Of a stretch of 64,000 nt of DNA, positions 7,323-48,255 are shown in pieces. Made by a program: the position numbers and the translations under genes. Source of the stretch: Candidatus Omnitrophota bacterium (lineage in GTDB: Bacteria > Omnitrophota > Gorgyraeia > Gygaellales > Profunditerraquicolaceae); contig JACQXK010000085.1 in assembly GCA_016208765.1 (NCBI GenBank), positions 4,814 through 68,813 of the forward strand, in the 5' to 3' direction. Under the pieces are notes generated by a model. That model worked only from the letters and a program-made list of their open reading frames with translations, did not search any database and had not been told where the DNA came from. The first letter of the stretch is position 1. Each line of letters opens with the position of its first letter.

Positions 7323-8147
7323 ATGGCTGATTATTCTGTTGATAAAATAAAAGCATTAGAAGATAAAGCAAAACAAATCCGCAGGCTCATTGTATCAATG
7401 TTAGTCAAGGCCGGATCAGGCCATCCCGGAGGAAGCCTTTCCTCAACTGATTTAATTACTGTTTTATTTTATTCTGTGTTGCGGCATAATCCCAAGAACC
7501 CATCGTGGCCGGAACGCGACCGTTTTCATATGTCTAAAGGGCATTGCTGCCCGTTGTGGTATGCTGTGCTTGCTGATTCCGGATATTTTCCGCAGGAGAA
7601 ACTCTGGACATTGAGGCAATTAGGGTCAATGTTGCAGGGGCATCCTGACAGGCGCACCCCGGGAGTAGAGGTTTCAAGCGGGTCTCTTGGCCAGGGGCTC
7701 TCGGTGAGCCTTGGAATGAGCCTGGCTGCCCGGCTTGATAAACGCGATTCCCGGATATATGTCCTGATGGGAGACGGAGAAACTCAGGAGGGAAATATCT
7801 GGGAAGCAGCTATGGCTTGCAGCCATTATAAGTGCGATAATATTTGCGGTATCCTTGATTATAATGGTTTTCAGATTGATGGCAAAATTTGCCAGGTGAT
7901 GGCGCTTGAACCTTTGGCAGCAAAGTGGCAGGCATTTGGTTGGCATACGATTGAGATTAACGGGCATAATGTTAAAGAAATACTTTCTGCTTATGCTGAA
8001 GCGAAGATGGTCAAGGGAAAACCGACGATAATTATCGCCCATACAGTAAAAGGCAAGGGCGTTTCTTTTATGGAGAATGTCTGTGATTTTCATGGCCGCG
8101 CTCCGACAAAGGAAGAGGCGGAAAAGGCGTTAAAGGAACTGGAATAA
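7323..8147 (+). CDS. Transketolase, N-terminal (TPP-binding) subunit of split transketolase
   Basis: GHPGGSLS and GDGE(TQ)EG motifs; about 274 aa, typical split-tkt A subunit. Confidence 0.85.
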   Translation: MADYSVDKIKALEDKAKQIRRLIVSMLVKAGSGHPGGSLSSTDLITVLFYSVLRHNPKNPSWPERDRFHMSKGHCCPLWYAVLADSGYFPQEKLWTLRQLGSMLQGHPDRRTPGVEVSSGSLGQGLSVSLGMSLAARLDKRDSRIYVLMGDGETQEGNIWEAAMACSHYKCDNICGILDYNGFQIDGKICQVMALEPLAAKWQAFGWHTIEINGHNVKEILSAYAEAKMVKGKPTIIIAHTVKGKGVSFMENVCDFHGRAPTKEEAEKALKELE

Positions 8148-8150
8148 ATA

Positions 8151-8189
8151 TTGATTAATTGGTGAGTGGTGAGTAGGCCAATTAATCAA
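8151..8189. other. Perfect 12-bp inverted repeat (TTGATTAATTGG / CCAATTAATCAA) hairpin between the two transketolase subunit genes
   Basis: Left arm 8151-8162, right arm 8178-8189, 15-nt loop; no downstream T-run. Confidence 0.6.
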
Positions 8190-8206
8190 TTAACTAATTA
8201 ACCAAA

Positions 8207-9133
8207 ATGGAACAATTATATCAAAGAGATGTTTATGGCCAGTCACTTGTGGAATTAGGCAAGTTGAATAAGGATATTGTGGTTTTAGACGCGGATCTGT
8301 CCAGCTCTACCCGCACCGGATTATTTGCCAAGGAATTTCCTGAGCGTTTTTTTAATTTTGGTGTTGCTGAGCAGAACATGATTGCTTCTGCTGCAGGTTT
8401 TGCTGCAAGCGGAAAAATAGTTTTTGCTTCAACTTTTGCGATATTTGCCACCGGCCGCGCCTGGGATCAGGTAAGAAATTCAGTTTGTTACAGTAACCTT
8501 GATGTTAAAATTGTAGCCACGCATGCCGGAGTTTCCGTCGGGCCGGACGGAGCAAGCCATCAGGCGTTAGAAGATATTGCTTTGATGCGGGTGATCCCAA
8601 ATATCAAAATTATTGTGCCTTGCGACGGGCCGCAGGCGCGCGATGCGGTTATTGCCGCGGCAAACAATAAGGGCCCATTTTATGTGCGCTTGGGCAGGCC
8701 GAAAATCCCTACTATAGAAAATAAAGGCGAGTTTAAGTTGGGTAAAGCGCAGGTGTTAATTGACGGAACCGATGTTACTGTTGTTGCTTGCGGGATTATG
8801 GTGGCAGAGGCATTGGCAGCAGTTAATGAACTGGCAAAAAAAGGTATTAAAGCCCGCCTGATCAATGTGCATACTATACGGCCGTTAGATGCTGAGGTAA
8901 TTTTAAAAGCTGCAAAGGAAACCAAAGCAATAGTGGTTTGCGAGGAGCATTCAGTTATCGGTGGTTTAGCCTCCAGTATTGATGAAGTAGTGGCGGAAAA
9001 CTATCCGGTTAAGGTTGTGCGCGTGGGTGTGAGAAATAAATTCGGCCAGTCAGGCGATCCTTTAAGCCTTTTAAAAGAATATAACTTGACCAGCTCAGAT
9101 ATTGAAAAAGCGGTAATGTCCAGTATTGCTTGA
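8207..9133 (+). CDS. Transketolase, C-terminal (pyrimidine-binding) subunit
   Basis: FNFGVAEQNM, ATHAGVSVGPDGASHQ motifs typical of transketolase central/C-terminal domains. Confidence 0.85.
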   Translation: MEQLYQRDVYGQSLVELGKLNKDIVVLDADLSSSTRTGLFAKEFPERFFNFGVAEQNMIASAAGFAASGKIVFASTFAIFATGRAWDQVRNSVCYSNLDVKIVATHAGVSVGPDGASHQALEDIALMRVIPNIKIIVPCDGPQARDAVIAAANNKGPFYVRLGRPKIPTIENKGEFKLGKAQVLIDGTDVTVVACGIMVAEALAAVNELAKKGIKARLINVHTIRPLDAEVILKAAKETKAIVVCEEHSVIGGLASSIDEVVAENYPVKVVRVGVRNKFGQSGDPLSLLKEYNLTSSDIEKAVMSSIA

Positions 9134-25193: not shown

Positions 25194-26207
25194 TCAAAAT
25201 CTCAATTTATTTACTGCTACTTTTATATGTTCTTTACTAAGGTGGCTATAAATCATCGTGGTTGTAATTGAAGAGTGCCCTAAAAGATCTTTCACGGTGT
25301 TTAAATCTACTCCATTCATAACTAAATGAGAAGCGAAGGTGTGTCTTAGTGTATGCCAACCAATACCCATTAATTTCCCTATTTTCAGGATCCTTTTGAA
25401 TACCCGTCTTTGATTGGTGGTGTCAAAACAAGGCCCTTTTTCCTTGCGTAGAGGAACCAAGATAGATCTAAGCTTATCATGTAAGGGTATTACCCTGAAT
25501 TTCTTTGATTTAGTGGTAAAACCCTCTTTATTCTTTACGGTGATCTGTTTTCGTGTGAAATCTACATCTGACCATTCCAAGCTGAATAGTTCCGCTTGGC
25601 GCATACCGGTATATATAGCAGTGGCAATAACTGGATATAAGACAGTATCCCTGTCTGTATAAATATCAGGGTTCTGCGCAGCAGTAAGTAATTCTTCTAT
25701 TTCTTCTCTGCTTAAAAATCTTTTTGGGTTTAATGGTATCTTATACTTTTTTACATTTCGTAGTGGATTATCAGTGACGTATTGCATTTTAACGGCCCAG
25801 TTAAGCCAAGCCTTAAGATTTATGATTGTGTTGTTTGCTTCATAAAGGCTGATTTTGTCGTTATTTATCCTATGGTTTAGATATTCCTGCAATTTGTTTT
25901 CAGAAATTCTATTAACAGTGAGAGTTGCCGCCCAAGACAAGAATCTTTTTATACGAGATTCTGTGCCAAGATTAACATCTCTTACACGGCGATGTTCATT
26001 GAATTGTTGATATTCTTCAAGAAGAGAAGAACAGTTTCTTTGATTATCTGGGGCAATGTTATTGCCTTCAATTAACGATTGATCTTGTTTATTCTTGAGA
26101 TATATAGCTTGTGAGCGGTCTTTAGTTTTTAAACTCCTGCGATAAAGCTTTCCATTCTTATAAAAAGCAAGCCAGTATATTTGATCGCGACGATATAAAT
26201 GTGACAT
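25194..26207 (-). CDS. int: Tyrosine site-specific integrase
   Basis: C-terminal catalytic motifs HTLRHTFASHLV...LLGHSSITTTMIYSHL (R..HxxR..Y). Confidence 0.9.
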   Translation of the reverse strand: MSHLYRRDQIYWLAFYKNGKLYRRSLKTKDRSQAIYLKNKQDQSLIEGNNIAPDNQRNCSSLLEEYQQFNEHRRVRDVNLGTESRIKRFLSWAATLTVNRISENKLQEYLNHRINNDKISLYEANNTIINLKAWLNWAVKMQYVTDNPLRNVKKYKIPLNPKRFLSREEIEELLTAAQNPDIYTDRDTVLYPVIATAIYTGMRQAELFSLEWSDVDFTRKQITVKNKEGFTTKSKKFRVIPLHDKLRSILVPLRKEKGPCFDTTNQRRVFKRILKIGKLMGIGWHTLRHTFASHLVMNGVDLNTVKDLLGHSSITTTMIYSHLSKEHIKVAVNKLRF

Positions 26208-26907: not shown

Positions 26908-27389
26908 TTTACTTCTGTGAATTTGATTTCTTCTATCCAGATGTTTTTTATTCCATTAGATTCTAATGTAAAATATAGCTTTCCGGATTTTTCTAAATTT
27001 GACGGTTTAGGAGGAATCATCCAAGCAGTATTGTCTGCAATTCTCTCTGGAATCAAAACTTCTGCGAATTTTGATTTAGGGGGAATTGGCATAAAGGGCT
27101 GCTGCATATCTGAATGTATCTTTTTTGCCTGTCCTCTTATTAACCTTTGAGTGATACCTTCAGTTGTGACATAACTGGATTCATCTAATAAAAATTTAAC
27201 CATATTGTCAGTATTGTTTTGTATAATTACAGTCCATGCTGATCCAATTGGCACTAAGGTTATGCTTATGCCATTTATTTTCTGTAAAGTGGTAAAATTC
27301 TCATTATAAATAGGGCCTTGATATCCCCTGTATTGAGGAGTAACACATCCGGACAATATAAGCATAAGTAGCAAAACTGTTTTTTTCAT
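26889..27389 (-). CDS. Lipoprotein (lipobox LILSGC), int-proximal cargo
   Basis: MKKTVLLLMLILSGC signal/lipobox; start at Met preceded by aaaggaagg RBS. Confidence 0.55.
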   Translation of the reverse strand: MKKTVLLLMLILSGCVTPQYRGYQGPIYNENFTTLQKINGISITLVPIGSAWTVIIQNNTDNMVKFLLDESSYVTTEGITQRLIRGQAKKIHSDMQQPFMPIPPKSKFAEVLIPERIADNTAWMIPPKPSNLEKSGKLYFTLESNGIKNIWIEEIKFTEVKCPTVP

Positions 27390-28015
27390 ACCTTCCTTTT
27401 TATTTCTGTTATTTTGAAACAACGGCATTCGTTCTTGCCTGATAAAGTTATTATATCATGTTTATCGTTTAACGGGACAAGATGAATGTTATTGTTAGAG
27501 TGCTTGATTTTTTTAACTGTAACGCCTTTACCGTCTTTACGGCAGAAAATCAAATCCCCGTCATTTATTTGCTTAGAGGGTTCTACAAGCAGCAAATCCC
27601 CATCAAATATTGTGCGTCTATCATCAGCCCGGCCAGTCATGCTATCGCCATGCGCACGGACATAAAAAGCATTAGCGTCTTTACTGTTTGTTGGTTCGTT
27701 TTCCGGGTAGTGTCCTACAGGATAGCTACCGTCACTCCAGTCAATAAACTTACCGCATGAGGCGTCAAATACAGGAATTAAGCGTTGATCAGGTTTTACA
27801 TAAACAGGTGGGGTTATACCATAAAGTTCATTTAAAGATATCCCAAAGATATCACAGAGCTTTTGACGCTGGGTAGGATTGGGGCCGTTTAATTCGGTTT
27901 CCCATGCAGATATGGCAGAAGGTCTTTTAAGACCCAATTTTAAAGCCAATTCTTTTTGGCTCCAGTTCTTTTCTTCACGCAACTGTTTTATACGTTGTCC
28001 TATGGTCATAAGCAT
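27386..28015 (-). CDS. cI: CI-like repressor: XRE HTH + S24 (LexA-like) self-cleaving peptidase domain
   Basis: N-terminal HTH (QKELALKLGLKRPSAISAWE), C-terminal GDSM ... K S24 motifs. Confidence 0.8.
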   Translation of the reverse strand: MLMTIGQRIKQLREEKNWSQKELALKLGLKRPSAISAWETELNGPNPTQRQKLCDIFGISLNELYGITPPVYVKPDQRLIPVFDASCGKFIDWSDGSYPVGHYPENEPTNSKDANAFYVRAHGDSMTGRADDRRTIFDGDLLLVEPSKQINDGDLIFCRKDGKGVTVKKIKHSNNNIHLVPLNDKHDIITLSGKNECRCFKITEIKRKV

Positions 28016-28020
28016 TTTAT

Positions 28021-28239
28021 ATCACAAAATCTGTCAACCACCAAAGAAAATAATCACAGTAAATCTGTCTTTGAATAATATATTTCTCGTCGGTGTGATA
28101 AAATATGATAACTTAGTAAATAAAATCTGTGAGAAAAATACTTGACAAATACAGGAAATCTGTCATACTTTGACTAAGGTTGAAAGGAGCTATTTTTTTA
28201 AACTCAAATGTCAGAAAATCTGTCAAAGGAGAATAATCC
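28021..28239. promoter_or_regulatory. Immunity-region operator/promoter cluster: 5 copies of AAATCTGT(C/G)A between divergent cI and cro; TTGACA-16-CATACT promoter
   Basis: Repeats at 28027, 28071, 28123, 28155, 28216; -35 ttgaca 28142-28147; aaggag RBS 28226-28231. Confidence 0.6.
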
Positions 28240-28482
28240 ATGGGAATGATTAGGTTAAAGGAAGAAGTGATAAAAAACTGGCTGAAAAACAAAACCACGC
28301 CACCGCGCACCATTGAGGAGCTTGCTGAGTTAATGAAAATTGAGCCGAGTTTATTGTACATGATTTTTAGCGATGACCGCCAAGTTACTCCTAATGTTTT
28401 GCGCCGATTATGTGAAGTCACTGGTTACGATGTCGGTGACCTTTGTTTTTACGATCGCAATAAAGAGGAGAAAGATTCTTAA
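28240..28482 (+). CDS. cro: Cro-like small HTH regulator
   Basis: 80 aa, divergent from cI, HTH-like segment TIEELAELMKIEPSLLYMIF. Confidence 0.55.
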   Translation: MGMIRLKEEVIKNWLKNKTTPPRTIEELAELMKIEPSLLYMIFSDDRQVTPNVLRRLCEVTGYDVGDLCFYDRNKEEKDS

Positions 28483-29800: not shown

Positions 29801-31218
29801 AACCGTTATTTAAGCATCAAAAAGAAGCTTTAGATTTTATCGTTTCAAATAATGGATTTGGGGCATTGTTTCATGAAGTGGGATGCGGGAAAACAAGGAC
29901 TGCTCTTGAGATATTTAGTCATTACAAAAGATTAGATCCTGAGCTTAAACTTTTTGTTATTTGTCCATTGTCCCTTATTAACTCTGCATGGGGAGAGGAC
30001 ATAAAGCAGTTTACCTGTTTTAATTATCGCAATTGTCATGACGAAACGATTGAGCTGCGCAAAGATACTGATATTTATATTATAAACTTTGAATCATTGA
30101 TAAGCGAAAACAAAATCAAACAACTTCATAAGATGATTAATTTCTCGAAAGTAATGTGTGTTATTGACGAATCTTCAAAGATGAAAAACCATAAAGCAAG
30201 GACGACAAAAACCCTGTTGTCACTTAGGAATTACTTCAATTTTCGCATAATTATGTCAGGAACTCCGGCGCCTAACTGCGAGACAGAATACTGGGCCCAG
30301 ATTAATTTTATTAAGCCCGGAATCGTGCATGAGAAGTTTTATCCATTTAGATATTTTTACTTTCATCTTGAGAGAGAGCGTAATGGCAAGCAAGAATTTA
30401 CTTCCGGCCAAATTTACAGCAAGCTTGCGGCGCAACAGATCTTTCAGCGCGGTTGGCATTACGATATAACTACGCAGAAAAGACAGTTGCTTATGGATAA
30501 AATCTCGCCATATTGCCATTATGCGCGCAAGGCTGAGTGTTTGGATTTACCGGAGCAAATGGATGAAGTCAGATTAGTTGATATGGGTAAAAAACAAGCA
30601 TCTGTTTATAACTCCATGAAACGTGACTTAATTGCTGAGATTCAAAATTCTTTTGTAGTGGCGCAAGTAGCTTTGGCAAAAATTATGAAATTGCGGCAGA
30701 TAACTTCCGGGTTTGCGATAGACGAATCCGGAGAAACTATAATTATTGGAGAAAATCCTAAATTACAGGAGCTAAAAGATGTATTGGAGGAGGCAGGAAA
30801 ACAGCAGGTCATTATATGGTGCCAGTTTCAACACGAGATTAGACAGATTAAAGATTTATTGGGAGATAAGGCTGTTACTCTTTACGGTGAAACTAAAGAT
30901 AAAGATGATTCAATTACGGCGTTTAAGAATGGAAGCGCGCAGTACCTTATTGCGCATCCTAAAAGCGCCGGGCACGGATTGACATTTGTGAATTGCAGTT
31001 TACAGGTGTTTTATAGCCTTGATTATTCATGGGAGTTATATGAACAGGCGCGCGGCCGGATCCACAGAGCCGGGCAGGTCAACAAATGCACTTATGTTCA
31101 CTTGCTTTGTAAGGGGACTATTGACGAAGAGATTCTTAATGTCTTGCGTAATAAAAAAGACGCAACGGAGATATTGTATAGGATGGTGCAAGGAAATTTA
31201 GCGGAGGTAGGGAAGTGA
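29797..31218 (+). CDS. SNF2/DEAD-like helicase
   Basis: Walker A EVGCGKT, DExx VIDESSKMKN, C-terminal helicase motifs (HPKSAGHGLTF, ARGRIHRAGQ). Confidence 0.8.
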   Translation: MKPLFKHQKEALDFIVSNNGFGALFHEVGCGKTRTALEIFSHYKRLDPELKLFVICPLSLINSAWGEDIKQFTCFNYRNCHDETIELRKDTDIYIINFESLISENKIKQLHKMINFSKVMCVIDESSKMKNHKARTTKTLLSLRNYFNFRIIMSGTPAPNCETEYWAQINFIKPGIVHEKFYPFRYFYFHLERERNGKQEFTSGQIYSKLAAQQIFQRGWHYDITTQKRQLLMDKISPYCHYARKAECLDLPEQMDEVRLVDMGKKQASVYNSMKRDLIAEIQNSFVVAQVALAKIMKLRQITSGFAIDESGETIIIGENPKLQELKDVLEEAGKQQVIIWCQFQHEIRQIKDLLGDKAVTLYGETKDKDDSITAFKNGSAQYLIAHPKSAGHGLTFVNCSLQVFYSLDYSWELYEQARGRIHRAGQVNKCTYVHLLCKGTIDEEILNVLRNKKDATEILYRMVQGNLAEVGK

Positions 31219-32057
31219 AGGCAGAAAAAGATATAAACACTTTAATTAAATCCACTCAAAACGAAGACGATAATTTTATTTCTTCTCTAGACGAGCATGT
31301 TGAAACAATTTTTAAGGTAGAACCTCCACTTATGCAAATCAAAGAAGGAAAGGGCTTTGGATTTATGGGTGTTATGCTACGCAATACAGTGGAAGATAAA
31401 CTTCAATGCCATATTTGCGGTGTATGGAGAAAAGGTTTAAGTACTCATACTAATCAAGCACATCAGATATCGGCTGATGAATATAGGAAAAAATTTCAAT
31501 TACCATTAACTTTTCCTTTGGTGTCTTTATCTACATCACAAAAACACTCTGATAGGGCAAATACTAAGAAAAACTTAGATCATCTCAATAAAGTGCGGAA
31601 TATTGAAAAACTTAATAATGTTTCCAGAAAAAAAAGACAGCGTTTTATGAGATATGCAAGAAATAATCTCGCTTTTCAAAATCAAAGAGCACTTTGTGAA
31701 GAACAGTTAGAGAGAAGATTTCTAATCGTTGCGGACATAGTCGGGAAAGAACCATCACAAATAGATTTAATTAAATATGATTGTAGTTTATGGGGGGCTA
31801 TCCGAAGACGATTTGGAACAATTAATGAATTTAGAAGAAAAAATAATTATGAAATCAAAAAAAGAGCAAAGGTGTTTAGCGATGAAAAGTTACTTTCTTG
31901 CATAATTAAATTTTACCATCAACATAAAATTATTCCGCGGCCAAGTCATTTTAAAGGCACTAAACCCAATATTGAAACTTTTCGTAATCACTTCGGCTCA
32001 TGGAACCGTGCTTTAAGTCTATGCGGATTTGACAAAATCGCGGAGGTGAAAAGATGA
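31215..32057 (+). CDS. Protein with MucR/Ros-type zinc-finger DNA-binding motif
   Basis: LQCHICGVWRKGLSTHTNQAHQISADEYRKKFQLPLTFPLV resembles the Ros/MucR C2H2 consensus (C.ICG..K.L..H....H.....EYR.K..LP). Confidence 0.45.
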   Translation: MKAEKDINTLIKSTQNEDDNFISSLDEHVETIFKVEPPLMQIKEGKGFGFMGVMLRNTVEDKLQCHICGVWRKGLSTHTNQAHQISADEYRKKFQLPLTFPLVSLSTSQKHSDRANTKKNLDHLNKVRNIEKLNNVSRKKRQRFMRYARNNLAFQNQRALCEEQLERRFLIVADIVGKEPSQIDLIKYDCSLWGAIRRRFGTINEFRRKNNYEIKKRAKVFSDEKLLSCIIKFYHQHKIIPRPSHFKGTKPNIETFRNHFGSWNRALSLCGFDKIAEVKR

Positions 32058-33767: not shown

Positions 33768-36248
33768 ATGAATACTATCTACGAATTTATTACCACGCGC
33801 GGCAAACTTACCGATTTACACAGACAAGAGTTAAAGACAAAAAGAGGTTTCACAGACGAAACGATTGATAAATTCAGGTTTTTCTCTGGCGGTAAATACT
33901 TAATTGATTTGGAGCAGGAGATTATCAATAATTTTGACAAAGAATCACTTGTTTCAATGGGTGTATGTATTGATTCAGGGAAAAGCTTAACTATTACGCC
34001 GATACTTTTAGAAGAGCGCATCATAATTCCCTACCTGAACTCCACAAGAAAAGCTTATTTATTAAGGCCGCATAAGTTAGGATTGTCAGGTGTGCCTGTT
34101 GAAATTTATTGTCCGGATTGGAATATAGCAAACAATATTGTCATGACCGAAGGAGAGTTCAAGGCTGTAGCAAGCGCACAGCTGGGGATCCCGGCTATTG
34201 CCATTCCGGGAATCGGTTCATTTTCAAAAGAGCATTTCCAAAGATTAGTCAAATTTCTTAATGATGCGAAAGTAAGAGATGTTTGTATTGTCTTTGATAA
34301 TGAGATTAAAGATGATCCGCGATTAAGTAATTATAAGGAAAATCCCTCAGATCGCTACGATACGCAGTTTTATGCTCATCTTATGGCACGACAGCTCGAC
34401 AGTGAGGGTTTCCGGGCCCAAGTGGGGACATTGCCTGACTCTTGGCGCGTCCACGGTAAAGCTGATATTGACGGGGCGTTGGCGCAGGGGAAAACCCGGG
34501 ATGATTTAGGAATGGTGATTACTTCTTCTCTCCCGGCAAAAAAATATGTTGAGGGATTGCCAAAAGAAGCGCAGACAGTCATCCGCCGCAAAATGAGCTT
34601 GAAGTATTTTCGCTCACATATACGTAAAGAGTTCGGGAAATATGTGGCCACAAGGCGCAAGGGCAAGACAGAGTGGGATGAAGAGATCTCTAACTTCACC
34701 ATGAAGATAATTGCGACACACGACACATTTGAGGGATTAGTCCGTGAGATACAATTCACTAATGAATTTGGGGATCATTCATCCTTTTATGCAATCAAGC
34801 CCGAGGATATGGGGGGAGCAGAAGGGTTCACAAAGTTTTGTTTTACTCATGGTAGTTTTGTTTGGCGCGGATACAAAGATGACCTGCTTAATATTTGGGA
34901 AGGATTGTTTTTAGAGGACGATGGCAGGCATATCATTGAGCCGGATCATATCGGATGGATTGAGTCAGAGAGTATGTGGGTATTTGGGAATATGGCAATT
35001 GATAAGGACGGAAAAGAGTTGCGGCCTGATAGGAATCACATCTTTTGGCTTGAGAAGAAAGGTATTAAGCCGGTGGCTTTGGGAGTTACATCAGGCAAGA
35101 TGCAGATTTCAGAGGGGATCCCTTATGTATCGTTTTCGCCTTGTGATATTAAAGAAATCCGGACAAAGTTAGCGGATACTATCGGTGACATAGAGGCTGT
35201 GAAATGCCTCGGGTGGGCTTCGGCCATACCTTACTTGGAGGATATATTTGATGCGTACGGTTGCTATCCATTTTTATTTATCACCGGCAGAACTGGCTCA
35301 GGCAAATCAACAATTGCGGAGTGGATCACCTGTTTATTTGGTATTGAAGATGCTGGAAAAAGCATCTCACAAACGACAGTTGTCGCGATCCAAAGGTCGC
35401 TGGGTTATTATTCGAGCTTGCCCGTATTCCTTGATGAGTTTAGGAACACTTCGGATATCACCTACAAAACAGGTTTCCTGCGCAATGTTTACAATCGCCA
35501 ATCTTCCGGCAAGGGGATCAAAGCAAACTTTGGCATTCGGGAGGCGAAAGTTCGCGGTACGATCATTATCGCGGGGGAAGAAACGCCTAACGACAACGCG
35601 ATCCTGAATCGCAGTATATTGGTTGAAATAGTTAAGAAGAACCGTAAGACCAACCACTATGACTGGTTTACCCGTAACAAAGCTAAATTCTCGCATCATA
35701 TACTGGAAATCATTAAGAACAAATCCCGGGACAAAGAACTCTTTATGCGCGTGCTTAGTGAAGCAAAAGATTATCTCACAAAACATGCCGGTGTAGATGA
35801 CCGGACAGCGGTTAATCATGCGGTGTTGTGTGCCGGGCATGCAATTACCTTTGGAGAGAAAGACCTTGATTTCGCGGATATGATTATCCAGGAGGCCCAA
35901 AAGACTAATACCGAGTACCAGAAGGATAACATGATGCATACATTCTTTTCTGATCTACAAGTTATGGCGCATAAGGGGGAGCTTAAAGATAACTATTGGG
36001 CAATTGAGGAAGGTAAGATTTATCTATATTTTGAGGCACTCTATAATGTCTGGTCAGCTGATGCCAGAAAACGCGGGATTGAGCCTTTTAAGCCTTCTTC
36101 GGTGCGCGGATATTTTAAAGAGGAGCCAGGGTTCATAGACATGTCCGCAAGGATGCGTATTAACGGTTACCAGCGCAGATGTATTGTTTTAGATTATGAG
36201 CTTTGCGGTGATCATGTTAAAGAGTTGGTGGAGGTAAAAATTGGATAG
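33768..36248 (+). CDS. DnaG-like (TOPRIM) primase fused to D5/SF3-type helicase (P-loop GRTGSGKST)
   Basis: TOPRIM-like EGEFKA...DNEIKDD; Walker A FITGRTGSGKSTIAEW; 826 aa. Confidence 0.75.
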   Translation: MNTIYEFITTRGKLTDLHRQELKTKRGFTDETIDKFRFFSGGKYLIDLEQEIINNFDKESLVSMGVCIDSGKSLTITPILLEERIIIPYLNSTRKAYLLRPHKLGLSGVPVEIYCPDWNIANNIVMTEGEFKAVASAQLGIPAIAIPGIGSFSKEHFQRLVKFLNDAKVRDVCIVFDNEIKDDPRLSNYKENPSDRYDTQFYAHLMARQLDSEGFRAQVGTLPDSWRVHGKADIDGALAQGKTRDDLGMVITSSLPAKKYVEGLPKEAQTVIRRKMSLKYFRSHIRKEFGKYVATRRKGKTEWDEEISNFTMKIIATHDTFEGLVREIQFTNEFGDHSSFYAIKPEDMGGAEGFTKFCFTHGSFVWRGYKDDLLNIWEGLFLEDDGRHIIEPDHIGWIESESMWVFGNMAIDKDGKELRPDRNHIFWLEKKGIKPVALGVTSGKMQISEGIPYVSFSPCDIKEIRTKLADTIGDIEAVKCLGWASAIPYLEDIFDAYGCYPFLFITGRTGSGKSTIAEWITCLFGIEDAGKSISQTTVVAIQRSLGYYSSLPVFLDEFRNTSDITYKTGFLRNVYNRQSSGKGIKANFGIREAKVRGTIIIAGEETPNDNAILNRSILVEIVKKNRKTNHYDWFTRNKAKFSHHILEIIKNKSRDKELFMRVLSEAKDYLTKHAGVDDRTAVNHAVLCAGHAITFGEKDLDFADMIIQEAQKTNTEYQKDNMMHTFFSDLQVMAHKGELKDNYWAIEEGKIYLYFEALYNVWSADARKRGIEPFKPSSVRGYFKEEPGFIDMSARMRINGYQRRCIVLDYELCGDHVKELVEVKIG

Positions 36249-36249
36249 A

Positions 36250-36535
36250 TTTTGTGACAGTGTGACAGTTTGTGACAGTGCTCTTTTTTTGAAGTGTCAC
36301 AGCGTAAGTTGTTTAAAGACATATAGTTATGAGGTTTTGTGACAGTGTGACAGCATTTTTGCATTTTTTTACGTACAGGTTATTTTTTGCAGGTTTGAAG
36401 AAACAAGAATTAAACACGTACGTAAACATATAGTTTTGGAAAACACTGTCACAGGTGTCACAAATGACGTAAGTCCTTTATTTTCTAAGTGACAGTGAGG
36501 TGTCACAGTTGTGACAGTGTGACAGTTTAAAACAA
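36250..36535. repeat. Iteron-type origin: 12 or more copies of GTGACAG / CTGTCAC heptamers in four clusters, AT-rich spacers, ACGTACGT palindromes
   Basis: Heptamers at 36254, 36262, 36272, 36295, 36339, 36347, 36446, 36456, 36489, 36500, 36510, 36518; immediately downstream of primase-helicase. Confidence 0.7.
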
Positions 36536-36544
36536 GGAGGAAGC

Positions 36545-36850
36545 ATGTTTGAGCATAAAGTAGCGGAAAAGGCAACACAGGACACTCAGTTGTCAGATTT
36601 CGTGGACTTATACAGCAGGTTCACACAAGACGCGCTTAAGGTGTCTGAGATTATTAATCAAAATAGGGCCACAAAACAGGATCGCTTTCGCATGCGGCAA
36701 TTTGAGGCTAAAATAGATGCAGAGTGGCGCAAAATCCCGGAAGTTAAGCGTAGTATGTTGGTAGAGCTTCTTTTGGTCAAGAAACTGCTCCCTGAGGCAG
36801 TAAAGCGGGCAATTCAGGTGTTTGAGGGAAAGGTGGTGAAGGTGGTATGA
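36545..36850 (+). CDS. Hypothetical protein
   Basis: ORF with aaggagg RBS. Confidence 0.5.
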   Translation: MFEHKVAEKATQDTQLSDFVDLYSRFTQDALKVSEIINQNRATKQDRFRMRQFEAKIDAEWRKIPEVKRSMLVELLLVKKLLPEAVKRAIQVFEGKVVKVV

Positions 36851-37074
36851 ATATTAATGAGATTATTGCTGATTCATTGTCTATAAATCCAGAAAAGGTA
36901 ACATGCGAATCAAGATTTATAGAAGATCTTGGAGCAGATTCTTTGGACTTAATAGTATTAACCATGAGATTAGAGGAAGAGTTTAACATTAGGATATCTG
37001 ATGAAGAAGCGAGGGATATTCTAAGTGTAAACCAGTTGATAAAGTTTATTGAGGATAAAACAAATGTTCATTGA
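36847..37074 (+). CDS. Acyl carrier protein-like (phosphopantetheine site DLGADSLD)
   Basis: 75 aa, EDLGADSLDLIVLTMRLEEEFNIRISDEEA matches the ACP helix II and serine attachment motif. Confidence 0.65.
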   Translation: MNINEIIADSLSINPEKVTCESRFIEDLGADSLDLIVLTMRLEEEFNIRISDEEARDILSVNQLIKFIEDKTNVH

Positions 37075-38230: not shown

Positions 38231-38782
38231 ATGACAATAACTAAAGAATGGCTCAAAGAGAAGTTAGCTTGTAAAGAAGGGGTGGATTGGTTTGTAAATC
38301 AACAAGAAACAGAAGGTATTAAAATTGTTGAAAAGCTTGTTCAGGAGGATAGATTACAATGGGCTAATTGGCTTATTGTAAGGATTATGACTAAAAAGCA
38401 ATATGTTTCTTATGCTGTTTATTCTGCGGAACAAGTAATTGATATTTATGAAAAGAAATACCCAGAGGATAAAAGGCCACGAAACGCTATTGAAGCAGCG
38501 AAGAAATGTATAGAAAACCCAAGCGAAGAAAATAAGAAGGCTGCTGCTTCTGCTGCTACTTCTGCTCATGCTGCTGCTGCTGCTCATGCTGCTTATTCTG
38601 CTTCTGCTGCTTCTGCTGCTTATTCTGCTGCTGCTTCTGCTGCTTCTGCTGCTTATTCTGCTTCTGCTGCTTCTGCTGCTTATTCTGCTGCTGCTGCTTC
38701 TGCTGCTTATTCTGCTGCTGCTTATGTTGCAAGAAAAAACATTTTAGAATATGGGTTAGAATTACTAAGGAGTGTGGAATGA
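38231..38782 (+). CDS. Protein with Ala/Ser/Tyr-rich low-complexity repeat region
   Basis: Structured N-terminal about 95 aa, then AAASAATSAHAAAAAHAAYSASAASAAYS... encoded by GCT-rich repeats. Confidence 0.55.
   Translation: MTITKEWLKEKLACKEGVDWFVNQQETEGIKIVEKLVQEDRLQWANWLIVRIMTKKQYVSYAVYSAEQVIDIYEKKYPEDKRPRNAIEAAKKCIENPSEENKKAAASAATSAHAAAAAHAAYSASAASAAYSAAASAASAAYSASAASAAYSAAAASAAYSAAAYVARKNILEYGLELLRSVE
38527..38730 (+). repeat. GCT-rich imperfect tandem repeat (gctgcttctgctgcttattctgct units)
   Basis: Visible direct repeats within the CDS. Confidence 0.7.
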
Positions 38783-40139: not shown

Positions 40140-40583
40140 ATGAAAGACCCTAATAAACATAAACTTACCCACGAAGAACAATATTATGTAAAACTTTGGC
40201 TCGCAGAAGATTGTGGATATTCAGAAGTGCTTTCCCGCCTCAAAGAACAATTTAATAAAGAAGTTATTCCTTGTGCCCTTACATATTACACACATCATTA
40301 CAAAGAAGAAATTCAAAAAATTCGCCATGAAATAAATTCTAATATTCTTAATATTCCAATTGCCAATAAAGAAGTACGATTGCGTAGACGAGAAGAAATT
40401 TATAAAATTTATAAATCAAAGGGTGAATTAGAAAAAGCACGTGCTGTTTTAGATGAAGCCAAGGAAGAAATGGAACCTAAGCAAACAGGTGTCCACGTAG
40501 GAGTGAGGGTTGATAATAGTGATAGACCAAGACGTTCAGAAGAGTGTCTCAATAGAGTTATTGAAGTTCTCGAAAGAAGATAA
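40140..40583 (+). CDS. Putative terminase small subunit
   Basis: 147 aa, directly upstream of large terminase; not recognised by motif. Confidence 0.35.
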   Translation: MKDPNKHKLTHEEQYYVKLWLAEDCGYSEVLSRLKEQFNKEVIPCALTYYTHHYKEEIQKIRHEINSNILNIPIANKEVRLRRREEIYKIYKSKGELEKARAVLDEAKEEMEPKQTGVHVGVRVDNSDRPRRSEECLNRVIEVLERR

Positions 40584-42078
40584 AGAAGAGGCGCTTTGTA
40601 AAGCTAAGGCTGAGCGCGCTGCTTTAAACTCTAATCATTTCTGCGAATTCGTCCTTAAGGATGAAAAAGGTCAGCATATCAATCAGGCTGATATACATCG
40701 GGAAATAAATTGGCACATAGATGAATGCCGCAAAAGAAAACTTAATTGTGGGATATTGGCACCTTTCAGGCATGGAAAGACTGAGCAGGTTGTTATCGCA
40801 CGCACATTGCAATTCTTGGGCGAGAATCAGAATAATAGAGTGTTTATAGTCTGTAACGCCGATGATAATGCCGCGGCTCGCGTTGAATCAATAGGCAAGT
40901 ATATTGACCATGACGAGGATTATCATTCTGTGTTCCCAAATGTCCGGGCCGGTGACAAAACACAATGGGGAAGGCATAAATTAGTTGTTAAAAGAGAGAG
41001 CTTGTCTAAGGATGGTTCTGTTGAGGCTTGGGGTATTACGTCATCAGGAACAGGTGCTGGTTGCGATTTTATGATAATTGATGACCCTGTTGACCTGCGT
41101 AACGCGATACTTAACCCTGCAATGCGGCAACAGGTAAAAGAAGCGTTTAAGAATGTCTGGAGCACGCGTTTAGCTCCTAATGGATTTAAGATTTATATTG
41201 CAACATCGTGGCATGATGACGATTTGACATCTGAGCTTCGTAAGAATTCAGAGTGGTGTTTCTTGGTGATAAAGGTATCTGATGACTTCTCAAAATTTGA
41301 TTGTGAGTCGTCGCTAAAAGGTAAATTCAGCATTCCCTTGTGGGATCAATGGCCAAAAGAGAAACTTATCGCTCGTTGCCGAGAAATAGGCACGCGCGCT
41401 TTTAATAGAGGATATCGGCAGTGCGCTTTGTCTGATGAGGATAGGACATTGCCGCATTATTTGCAGGTGTTTAAGCATGGAGTAAGGGTGAGTGATTTAG
41501 TTAGCCCTACTTGGCCGCGTGTCTGCGGCATGGATCCATTTGGTAAATTTGTTGTCATATTTACTCTTGCTTTGGGCCCTGATGGGAAACGATACCCTGT
41601 TGAGATACGCCGAGGTAAGTGGAATTCTACGGAAGCTGTGATGCAGTTAATAGATGCATATCAAACACATCATCATCAGTTAATTGTGGTGGAGAATAAC
41701 GCATCACAGGATGCGATAATCCAATGGGCTATGGAAAAAGGACAGCAACTTCCAATATGGCCATTTACCACAGGCAAACAGAAAGCGGATCCGGAGAATG
41801 GATTGCCAAGTTTAGATGTTGAGTTTGCAAATAATTCTTGGGTCTGTGCCATGGGAAGTGAACATCAGCCGGATTGCGGATGTGGTTTTTGTGTTTGGAA
41901 AAGAGAGATGTCAGAGCATCCAATAGGAGAGGCAGCTGATACTGTTATGGCTTCGTGGTTTGCGCGTGAGGCGGCAAGGGCATTGACTTTTAGAATAACT
42001 GAGCAACCGATGATTAATGAAGACATTGTAACTATGGAAGATGTTGGCCTTGAGCGCGTGGCCATAGGTGACTATTAA
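40510..42078 (+). CDS. terL: Terminase large subunit (ATPase + nuclease)
   Basis: Walker A-like ILAPFRHGKTE, Walker B MIIDDP; 522 aa; true start uncertain (74-nt overlap with upstream ORF). Confidence 0.75.
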   Translation: MIIVIDQDVQKSVSIELLKFSKEDKEEALCKAKAERAALNSNHFCEFVLKDEKGQHINQADIHREINWHIDECRKRKLNCGILAPFRHGKTEQVVIARTLQFLGENQNNRVFIVCNADDNAAARVESIGKYIDHDEDYHSVFPNVRAGDKTQWGRHKLVVKRESLSKDGSVEAWGITSSGTGAGCDFMIIDDPVDLRNAILNPAMRQQVKEAFKNVWSTRLAPNGFKIYIATSWHDDDLTSELRKNSEWCFLVIKVSDDFSKFDCESSLKGKFSIPLWDQWPKEKLIARCREIGTRAFNRGYRQCALSDEDRTLPHYLQVFKHGVRVSDLVSPTWPRVCGMDPFGKFVVIFTLALGPDGKRYPVEIRRGKWNSTEAVMQLIDAYQTHHHQLIVVENNASQDAIIQWAMEKGQQLPIWPFTTGKQKADPENGLPSLDVEFANNSWVCAMGSEHQPDCGCGFCVWKREMSEHPIGEAADTVMASWFAREAARALTFRITEQPMINEDIVTMEDVGLERVAIGDY

Positions 42079-46640: not shown

Positions 46641-48255
46641 GAATAGGATTAAGAATAAAGCTGAGAGTTTGCAGAAACAGCTTCGTGAAGCAGCAAAAGA
46701 AGCTGAGATTTATGTAGATAGCAAAGAATCAGCAACAAATAATTCTTTTTCTAAGACACTACTTACTGAGCTATCAAACGACATAGATTTAATATTAACC
46801 AAAGCAAGGGAAGGGCTTAAAGGCCGCAATGGTTCTCCGGCTGTCAGGCATTTCCTTCGGGAGGTAAAAGACAAAGTGAAGAAAATGATTGCAGGTATCA
46901 AGGAGGTAGAAGTCAAAACAATTGCTGAGTCAATTGTAAATAAGATTGAAGAAGCGGAGAAAACAGGAAGTTTTAGCGATATTGAATCACAGGTGCGCGC
47001 GGCAATAAAAAGTAATCCATTGTTTCCTGAGAAAATTGGCGAACGATATGCTGACGGGCCGTATGTCAGAGATATGTACCCGGATAGAGTTGTTATCAGT
47101 TACGAAGGGAAACTTTTTGAGATGGAGTATTCAATAATGAAAGAGGCGGTTATATTAGGCACGCCAAAAGAGGTAATTGAAAAATATGTTCCAGTTACTG
47201 AGGCCTCAAAAGATAAAGTTGAGGTAAAAGAGACGGCAAGAATTGAAGTGTTAAGGGAATCGCAGACACAGGATTTTGAGGTTTCTGGATTCGTTAGCCT
47301 TAAGGAGGCCAAATTTAATTCAGATTTTAGTGAGGTTGAAGTTGTGCTTATAGAGGCAGGATGTAATGAGCAGAAAAAGAGATATTATCCGGATAAAACT
47401 ATTAAAGAAGCCGCATCTATTTTTACAGGATGGAAGATGTATATAAATCATCCTACGGCTACAGAGGAGAAAGAAAGGCCGGAGAGAAATCTCAAGGATT
47501 GGGCATCTACGATTGTTGAGTCAAGGTATGACAACGGCATGGCTATCGGTAAGGTTGCCATACATGATTCTTGGCTTCGTGAGAGGCTTGCGGATCCGGT
47601 TGCAAGGCAGCATATAGGTTTGTCAATAAACACAGGAGGGAAAATATCCGTCGGACGCGTTAACGGCAAAGACGGTTATCAAATAGTTGAAGCGATTATA
47701 CCTGCACGGAAAAACGGCCCGCCATCGGTGGATTGGGTGACAGAAGCCGGAGCAAGGGGACGCGTAAACAAATTACTGGAGAGTAGAAGAGGAGGAGTAA
47801 AAATGGAATTAGAAATGGCAACAATGAAAGATTTAAAGGAAACAAGGTCTGATTTGGTTGAGGCTGTTACCAAAGAAATTCAGGCTGGCAACAGTGAGAA
47901 AGTGACAAAGCTTGAAAAAGACCTTAAGGAAGCACAGGATAAAATTGCGTCTTTTGATAAGACAGACAAGATTAATAAACAGGTTGAGTTGGTTGAGTCT
48001 ATCTTAAAGGACAAAAAGATTCCTGCTGTTTCCAAAGAGAGAATAATTGGGCAGGTAAAAGCTGCGGTTATTGATGGTGATATCAAAGAATCTATTACCA
48101 AATTGATTGAAGCAGAGCTTGAGTATGTGAACAAGCTCAGCCCAAAAGGAAAAATCAAGTTGTCAGAATCAAAGGATACCGATATCAAAGAATCGCTTCA
48201 AAACCAACTTGATAAACGAGCTGGAGTTGAAGAAAAGAAAGAAGAAAAGGAATAA
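46609..48255 (+). CDS. Putative scaffolding/head maturation protein (coiled-coil rich)
   Basis: 551 aa, K/E-rich coiled coils, positioned before decoration/capsid genes; aaggaggg RBS before ATG 46609. Confidence 0.45.
   Translation: MSHQVLIKELENRIKNKAESLQKQLREAAKEAEIYVDSKESATNNSFSKTLLTELSNDIDLILTKAREGLKGRNGSPAVRHFLREVKDKVKKMIAGIKEVEVKTIAESIVNKIEEAEKTGSFSDIESQVRAAIKSNPLFPEKIGERYADGPYVRDMYPDRVVISYEGKLFEMEYSIMKEAVILGTPKEVIEKYVPVTEASKDKVEVKETARIEVLRESQTQDFEVSGFVSLKEAKFNSDFSEVEVVLIEAGCNEQKKRYYPDKTIKEAASIFTGWKMYINHPTATEEKERPERNLKDWASTIVESRYDNGMAIGKVAIHDSWLRERLADPVARQHIGLSINTGGKISVGRVNGKDGYQIVEAIIPARKNGPPSVDWVTEAGARGRVNKLLESRRGGVKMELEMATMKDLKETRSDLVEAVTKEIQAGNSEKVTKLEKDLKEAQDKIASFDKTDKINKQVELVESILKDKKIPAVSKERIIGQVKAAVIDGDIKESITKLIEAELEYVNKLSPKGKIKLSESKDTDIKESLQNQLDKRAGVEEKKEEKE

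Follow-up and report, generated by a model that had tools for sequence, protein, structure and literature searches.

A probable iteron-type replication origin downstream of a primase-helicase gene in a temperate prophage of Candidatus Omnitrophica

The intergenic gap of 296 nt at positions 36249-36544 of the window (the whole stretch of 64,000 nucleotides analysed, which belongs to a Candidatus Omnitrophica MAG contig) is very probably a replication origin served by the primase-helicase encoded immediately upstream. The best reading of the repeat array contained in this gap is, by analogy, an iteron origin of the SaPI/Cch type, which would be read through the C-terminal winged helix of a self-loading primase-helicase. 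An iteron origin used by the upstream primase-helicase was already proposed in the preliminary description of this region, and the proposal is supported by the conserved place and layout of the array, by the covariation of its repeats with the C-terminal domain of the protein, by the predicted structure of this protein and by GC skew; from these we infer the origin activity of the gap. The assignment does not overturn current understanding and is a fairly ordinary but well-supported annotation. With it, a phage lineage known only from metagenomes obtains a candidate initiator and an origin annotated with confidence.

The array lies in a temperate prophage that starts at about 25.1 kb and continues through the last position of the window. 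The phage has a size of about 46 kb, with 39 kb inside the window and about 7 kb beyond it, and its close relatives are found on contigs of about 46.5 kb. An identity as a SaPI/PICI satellite was rejected, since the element encodes a terminase large subunit, a portal and a major capsid protein. On the minus strand, the prophage shows a gene encoding a tyrosine integrase (25194-26207) and a gene encoding a CI-like HTH/S24 repressor (27386-28015). Between the repressor gene and a rightward Cro-like ORF starting at 28241, the region 28016-28240 contains five copies of AAATCTGTC(A), which are probably the operators of the immunity switch. The rightward block contains genes encoding an SNF2 helicase, a MucR/HNH-repeat protein, a VRR-NUC protein, a Pam3 gp33-like protein (DUF7307), a gp34-like protein and the 826-aa ORF proposed as initiator (33768..36248, plus strand). 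The ORF for the ROS/MucR plus HNH-repeat protein (31215-32057), located within the replication module, has a counterpart in none of 12 closely related loci and may therefore be a mobile insertion. The 826-aa ORF is followed by small ORFs, one of which, two genes past the array, encodes an acyl carrier protein (PP-binding; 36847-37074) with counterparts in the related loci L190 and L168, and by a gene encoding a sigma-70 region-4 protein. Further downstream are a DUF2280 small-terminase candidate (40140-40583) and the terminase large subunit gene (40510-42078). In the replication module, no gene encoding a DNA polymerase of the phage was seen, and no partition genes were found among the neighbours scanned.

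The gap is non-coding, as had been stated, and extends from the stop codon of ORF 33768-36248 to the ATG at 36545; the array begins 5 nt past this stop codon (36248). At least 12 GTGACAG heptamers had been claimed. The number 12 holds for the hexamer core GTGACA/TGTCAC, which is present 12 times within 271 nt (36254-36524), but exact copies of GTGACAG or its complement are only nine (36254-36525), against 3.1 expected in total in the 64-kb window. Outside the array, the window contains two exact heptamers, as singletons at 47737 and 50459, and 15 GTGACA cores. These 15 cores are at chance level (14.1 expected per 64 kb), so that about 0.06 cores would be expected in 271 nt. The array is thus not part of a repeat dispersed through the 64-kb window. 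The idea of a dispersed host repeat family, or of a functionless repeat due to chance or slippage, has a nearly negligible probability: no support for it was found in the window, which includes 25 kb of host flank, the frequency of the core outside the array speaks against it, and the position and layout of the array are conserved, with lineage-specific sequences, in phages of many phyla.

The cores are found in both orientations: eight are on the plus strand (36254, 36262, 36272, 36339, 36347, 36489, 36511 and 36519) and four on the minus strand (36295, 36447, 36456 and 36501). They form four clusters, in agreement with the preliminary description: three direct cores plus an inverted one, two direct, two inverted, and a mixed cluster of four. 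The layout is therefore one of 6 + 6 cores, with inner tandem pairs that face each other over a central spacer. The left half shows the outer iterons 1-3 (GTGACAG, direct, plus strand, 36254..36277), iteron 4 in inverted orientation (TGTCAC on the plus strand; 36295..36300) and the inner tandem pair GTGACAGTGTGACAG, with a period of 8 nt and directed toward the spacer (36339..36353, plus strand). In alignments, this left inner pair matches in position the inner pairs of relatives, which have a different sequence. The right half shows the inverted inner pair CTGTCACAGGTGTCAC (36447..36461, minus strand), opposite the left one across the spacer, and the outer cluster of four cores in mixed orientation (36489..36524). 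Over the whole array, the core measures 6-8 nt and the tandem pairs have a period of 8-9 nt.

The central spacer (36353..36446, 94 nt between cores) shows 70% A+T and is, from its A+T content and alignment, the proposed melting region. Its A+T content of 0.70-0.72 is at the 95th percentile of 92-nt windows, against 60% in the whole window; this A+T-richness is moderate, and the spacer is outside the least stable 40-mers of the prophage. T-runs are present in the gap, as had been noted. The palindromes described as separating the clusters are reduced to a single ACGTAC (36371-36376) and a single ACGTACGT (36416-36423), both in the spacer and both parts of an imperfect inverted repeat. The spacer also contains the box AAACATATAGTTTTGG (36424-36439), which is kept in relatives regardless of their iteron type. 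A scan of all 300-nt windows of the 64 kb found only two repeat-dense sites: the array and a coding repeat of trinucleotide type at about 38.3-38.7 kb. The latter includes a 9-nt tandem repeat, CTGCTGCTT, present in 20.6 copies at 38541-38722 inside ORF 38231-38782, where it encodes an Ala/Ser/Tyr-rich tail (AASAAYSA...) of a protein with an Imm5-like N-terminal domain. No second iteron cluster was found in the 39 kb of the prophage within the window. A structured RNA in 35900-36900 was also considered and rejected, since Rfam gave only sub-threshold snoRNA noise.

According to its predicted structure, the 826-aa protein is a fusion of a primase of the DnaG type with a helicase resembling Cch and SaPI Rep, and has a winged helix at its C-terminus. 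The predicted order of domains is an N-terminal DnaG/Toprim-like primase, a central P-loop helicase, with the Walker A motif GRTGSGKST at about residue 507, and the winged helix. A database protein 100% identical to it, encoded on a 71.5-kb contig, is annotated only as 'DUF3854 domain-containing protein', and DUF3854, a Toprim-like domain, is the only Pfam match. The PHROGs matches are to DNA primase and primase/helicase families; an NCBIfam search of the protein gave nothing meaningful, and searches of PDB chains by sequence, with the single protein and with a profile, gave only P-loop noise. Among cultured phages, the nucleotide search with the gene plus the gap found no match, and the protein search yielded homologues along part of the protein only, with identities of 25% or less. 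The full-length AlphaFold (AF2) model, built from an alignment of 27 sequences, has a pLDDT of 79. With this model, Foldseek matches the SCCmec Cch 'active helicase' (5dgk_A, E 7e-8, 598 columns), the SaPIbov1 Rep initiator (8tch_B, E 2.6e-7, 607 columns) and the RNA-polymerase domains or catalytic cores of DnaG (E about 2e-7). DUF927, which is the domain of Cch and SaPIbov1 Rep (PMC7581432), matches 13 of the 27 family members weakly, and DNAG_N matches two. The gene had been named TOPRIM-D5 in the preliminary description. The first part of this name stands, in that the product is a DnaG/Toprim-like primase-helicase; the second does not, because the helicase matches the DUF927/Cch/SaPIbov1-Rep class, not D5. 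The D5/SF3 label was rejected, since Pfam shows no D5-type match and no D5 or SF3 structure is among the top 50 fold matches; DUF5906 matches four of the 27 homologues weakly (E 0.06).

The C-terminal domain, residues 701-826 (35868..36245, plus strand), is a predicted winged helix according to the AF2 model and Foldseek. Modelled alone (residues 683-826), it has a pLDDT of 87 and shows two helices, a hairpin, two further helices, a long wing hairpin and a final helix. The predicted wing hairpin comprises residues 789-809, with the tip N799-G800-Y801-Q802-R803-R804. The Foldseek matches of this domain alone are weak (E about 6e-3 and above); they are DNA-binding proteins of the winged-helix type, among them TcpK (on oriT) and Orc1/Cdc6 (on origin DNA).

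Homologues of the protein were gathered from viral contigs, from one genome per species, from metagenomes and by exact-protein look-ups. An array was scored when a 7-mer was repeated at least six times within 400 nt after the stop codon. By this measure 29 of the 40 homologous loci contain an array; the background has a median of 2-3 copies, with a maximum that is usually 3-6. In three loci (L149, L153 and L155) the array is 100-300 nt further on, and in L127 it consists of two interleaved motifs. The hosts of the homologous loci include Planctomycetota, Omnitrophota, Treponemataceae, Patescibacteria, Verrucomicrobiota and many Bacillota (Neomoorella, Desulfotomaculum and Pelotomaculum). The four most distant homologues, with at most 31% identity, show no gap after the gene. 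In L183 (3911-4213; protein P0046, wing tip VQRR, 54% identity) there is no array between the gene and the end of the contig, 260 nt later; a stretch of about 34 nt over the stop codon and the next start codon is duplicated there.

In the relatives, the array begins right after the stop codon or overlaps the last codons of the gene, and in several loci these last codons are themselves iterons. Close relatives (74-88% identity) share the orientation string (e.g. +++-++|--+-++) despite having different iterons. Across 13 close relatives the central gap measures 72-116 nt, and most of them show opposed inner pairs, the exceptions as scored being L160, L186 and L191. Some relatives have a spacer A+T content near the average of the locus (0.47 vs 0.46 in L190; 0.60 vs 0.59 in L126). 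Two boxes of the spacer are independent of the iteron in close relatives: ACGTAC, about 15-20 nt to the right of the left inner pair, and ACGTAA-CATATA-TTTTGG, to the left of the right inner pair. The iteron itself changes from locus to locus: GTGACA is found in the window, L162 and L167; GTTACA in L160; TAACAG in L185; CTGACAG together with CTGGCAG in L001 and L186; GTATCGG in L002 and L188; GTTCAGG in L126 and L168; GTTCCGG in L190 and GTTCCAG in L191. Mixed variants are present in L001 (6476-6783) and L186 (3977-4240), with CTGACAG and CTGGCAG, and in L127 (7510-7770), with TCCGACA and TGTAGG; such origins may represent an intermediate stage of a change of specificity or two modes of recognition. 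In L002 (3735-4170), a gene encoding an HNH endonuclease separates the first iteron, still present at the 3' end of the primase gene, from the remaining array, in what resembles a homing-type insertion within the putative origin.

The identity of each domain to the window protein was compared with the mismatch of the iteron by Spearman correlation in 12 close relatives, which are phylogenetically non-independent. The C-terminal domain (residues 701-826) follows the iteron most closely (rho -0.86, p = 3e-4, n=12), the middle region shows a rho of -0.69 (n=12), and the N-terminal 270 residues (rho -0.18, n=12) and the gp34-like neighbour (rho +0.08, n=12) show values near zero. Locus L162, which keeps the iteron of the window, shows the highest identity in the C-terminal domain (87%) and the lowest in the N-terminal domain (64%) and in the gp34-like protein (44%), and has another downstream gene; as judged from its sequence, it is a natural recombinant control. 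These values bear on the idea that the array is an origin whose iterons are read by another protein, such as a host factor or the product of the neighbouring gp34-like or DUF7307 gene, that brings in the primase-helicase. The genes for the DUF7307, Pam3_Gp34-like and primase proteins keep their synteny in nearly all loci; the gp33/gp34-like proteins, strongly divergent between phages (35-68% identity), could carry the specificity, and the isolated C-terminal domain matches known winged helices weakly. Such a reader is nevertheless unlikely, given the rho of the gp34-like protein against that of the primase C-terminal domain and the same iteron beside the most diverged gp34-like protein in L162; furthermore, the structural homologues SaPI Rep and Cch use their own C-terminal domain (PMC9371898, PMC7581432).

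Several tips of the wing are paired with a given iteron in distant proteins. The tip QRR is found with GTGACA in the window and L145 (39% identity), LRR with GTTACA in L160 and L184 (50% identity), PRH with GTATCGG in L002 and L188, and HPRR with ATGTAAC in L129 and L189. There is no clean wing code: MRR is found with both GTGACAG and TAACAG, and iterons of the GGTAAC type are found with several tips. Only two alignment columns, T270 and P776, separate the GTGACA group perfectly, and hence no single specificity residue can be named. A matched specificity of initiator and origin is supported by this comparison of gene and repeat sequences. A wider proposal is possible but doubtful, namely that these proteins form a large undescribed family of fused DnaG-primase/Cch-like self-loading initiators in temperate phages of many mostly uncultured phyla, in which replication genes otherwise 75-90% identical would exchange the wing and the 6-8 nt iteron jointly. 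If this were true, the family would offer a natural series for a code of wing-to-DNA recognition, and the switching of origin specificity is suggested as a barrier of replicon compatibility between co-circulating phages.

The array is also located directly upstream of a ribosome-binding site (AAGGAGG, 36534-36540) and an ORF of 101 aa (36545-36850, plus strand) without family match in Pfam or PHROGs. It could consequently be viewed as an operator or regulatory array of the downstream operon, or as an autoregulatory or handcuffing site, and not as the start of replication; operator regions also hold repeated protein sites in both orientations, and the same prophage has the five AAATCTGTC repeats at its immunity region. 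This view is very unlikely. The promoter and terminator scan found neither a sigma-70-like promoter on the plus strand nor a terminator in the gap, and the array adjoins the primase gene at its 3' end, or overlaps it there, instead of adjoining a promoter. Structural homologues of the helicase domain with which the array covaries are initiators, and the iterons persist where the downstream gene differs (L162 and L185). The 101-aa ORF lies next to the array in many loci, with exceptions, and probably does not belong to the origin; as an iteron binder it was set aside, since it is missing after the array in these same two loci.

The exact 16-mer TGTGACAGTGTGACAG has more than 120 matches in viral contigs, mostly single and apparently due to chance, with the exception of L041 (IMGVR_UViG_3300038696_000046). 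This P22-like viral contig (portal, terminase and gp3 small terminase) has an array of its own at 7937-8226, next to gp3 in a gap between divergent genes: about 12 GTGACA cores, present in both orientations, surround a centre very rich in A+T. No primase homologue is encoded in the 13-kb locus. The location of this array beside a small terminase gene means that the GTGACA motif alone is not diagnostic. This array of an unrelated contig also gives some weight to a reading of the window array as a packaging (pac/cos) or partition (centromere-like) site, and the P1 pac site and plasmid centromeres are likewise clusters of short repeats that flank a central region. For the array of the window, such a function is extremely improbable: the terminase large subunit gene and the DUF2280 candidate are 3.6-4 kb away, the neighbours scanned include no partition genes, and the iterons covary with the primase C-terminal domain.

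Replication from the gap is also consistent with GC skew, the check that had been suggested for the prophage. The skew is positive throughout and never changes sign because all genes are on the plus strand. In the co-oriented block of 28.5-64 kb, the minimum of the detrended cumulative skew is at 35,958, and a single change point is best placed at 35,960, where the skew passes from 0.153 to 0.249; the array follows about 290 nt later. A rise of skew across the array is found in 21 of 24 related loci (mean +0.064, Wilcoxon p = 1e-4). The direction of the step fits rightward leading-strand synthesis from the array. The change point, at about 35.96 kb, is beside the array; since the step coincides with a boundary of gene modules, composition could explain it, and the skew is taken as supportive only.

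Under the reading as an origin of the SaPI/Cch type, the following sequence of events can be proposed. After induction, the rightward early operon would give the 826-aa primase-helicase, whose C-terminal winged-helix domain would bind and read the iterons. Two rings would assemble on the opposed half-sites of 6 + 6 iterons, melt the spacer and, in the manner of SaPI Rep, carry out their own loading. Primers would then be made by the N-terminal DnaG-type domain for the host polymerase, which is included in the model because no polymerase gene of the phage was seen in the module. The design of the SaPI Rep/Cch origin would in this way be extended from staphylococcal islands to complete temperate phages in several phyla. 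Origins that are near-identical but have different iterons lend themselves to examining how a winged helix recognises a site of 6-8 bp, and a set of origins with swapped specificity could serve for orthogonal replicons.

Classical iteron plasmids (pPS10, RK2, F and P1) contain repeated initiator sites beside an A+T-rich region, and their iterons set specificity and incompatibility. These iterons are direct repeats of 17-22 bp on one side of the A+T-rich region, and the Rep protein, small and of the winged-helix type, has neither helicase nor primase activity; DnaA boxes and loading of the host DnaB are needed. The array of the window resembles them in having repeated initiator sites next to an A+T-rich region, and differs in having short two-sided iterons and a primase-helicase instead of long one-sided direct iterons and a small Rep.

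The alpha protein of satellite phage P4 contains primase, helicase and a C-terminal winged-helix origin-binding domain in one polypeptide; its helicase belongs to SF3, the P4 iterons are of octamer size (type I, TGTTCACC), and P4 replication needs a second cis site, crr, several kb from ori. The window shares with P4 the single primase-helicase polypeptide with a C-terminal winged helix and the octamer-size iterons. Unlike P4, it shows no second, crr-like iteron cluster in the 39 kb of prophage within the window, with about 7 kb of prophage outside it, and the best structural matches are Cch and SaPIbov1 Rep, with no P4 structure among the fold matches.

CyRepA1 and CyRepA2 (DUF3854 plus helicase) are initiators of cyanobacterial plasmids for which autonomous replication was shown (PMC10079941). 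Like the window protein, they carry a DUF3854/Toprim-like domain at the N-terminus and a helicase domain after it, the homology considered being that of DUF3854. They differ in being plasmid proteins, in that the region required in cis by CyRepA2 is upstream of the gene, and in that no iteron array is described for them (PMC10079941). The origin of pRN1 likewise requires sequence located downstream of the primase-helicase gene (PMC4234260).

SaPI origins contain 6-12 iterons immediately downstream of rep around an AT-rich centre, with at least two iterons per side in opposite directions (PMC9371898; PMC7581432). SaPI Rep is a self-loading helicase whose C-terminal winged helix binds the iterons without ATP, and in SaPI5 pri and rep are fused (PMC9371898; PMC7581432). 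Compared with the SaPI (SaPIbov1, SaPI1 and SaPI5) and SCCmec Cch/Cch2 systems, the window protein shows no detectable sequence similarity to any PDB chain, and half of its family matches DUF927 weakly. The element is a complete temperate phage and not a satellite or cassette, the hosts are uncultured Omnitrophota, Planctomycetota, Bacillota and others, not staphylococci, and the window array shows a core of 6-8 nt with tandem pairs of 8-9 nt period. The systems are alike in six features: a site immediately 3' of the initiator-helicase gene (here 5 nt); 6-12 iterons in two sets, here 6 + 6 around a 94-nt, modestly A+T-enriched spacer; opposed inner iterons, here 36339/36347 (plus strand) and 36447/36456 (minus strand); a Rep/Cch-like AAA+ helicase with a C-terminal winged helix, here by predicted structure; a matched specificity of Rep and ori, here by comparison only; and a primase adjacent or fused to the helicase, which is here fused and of the DnaG/Toprim type (DUF3854).
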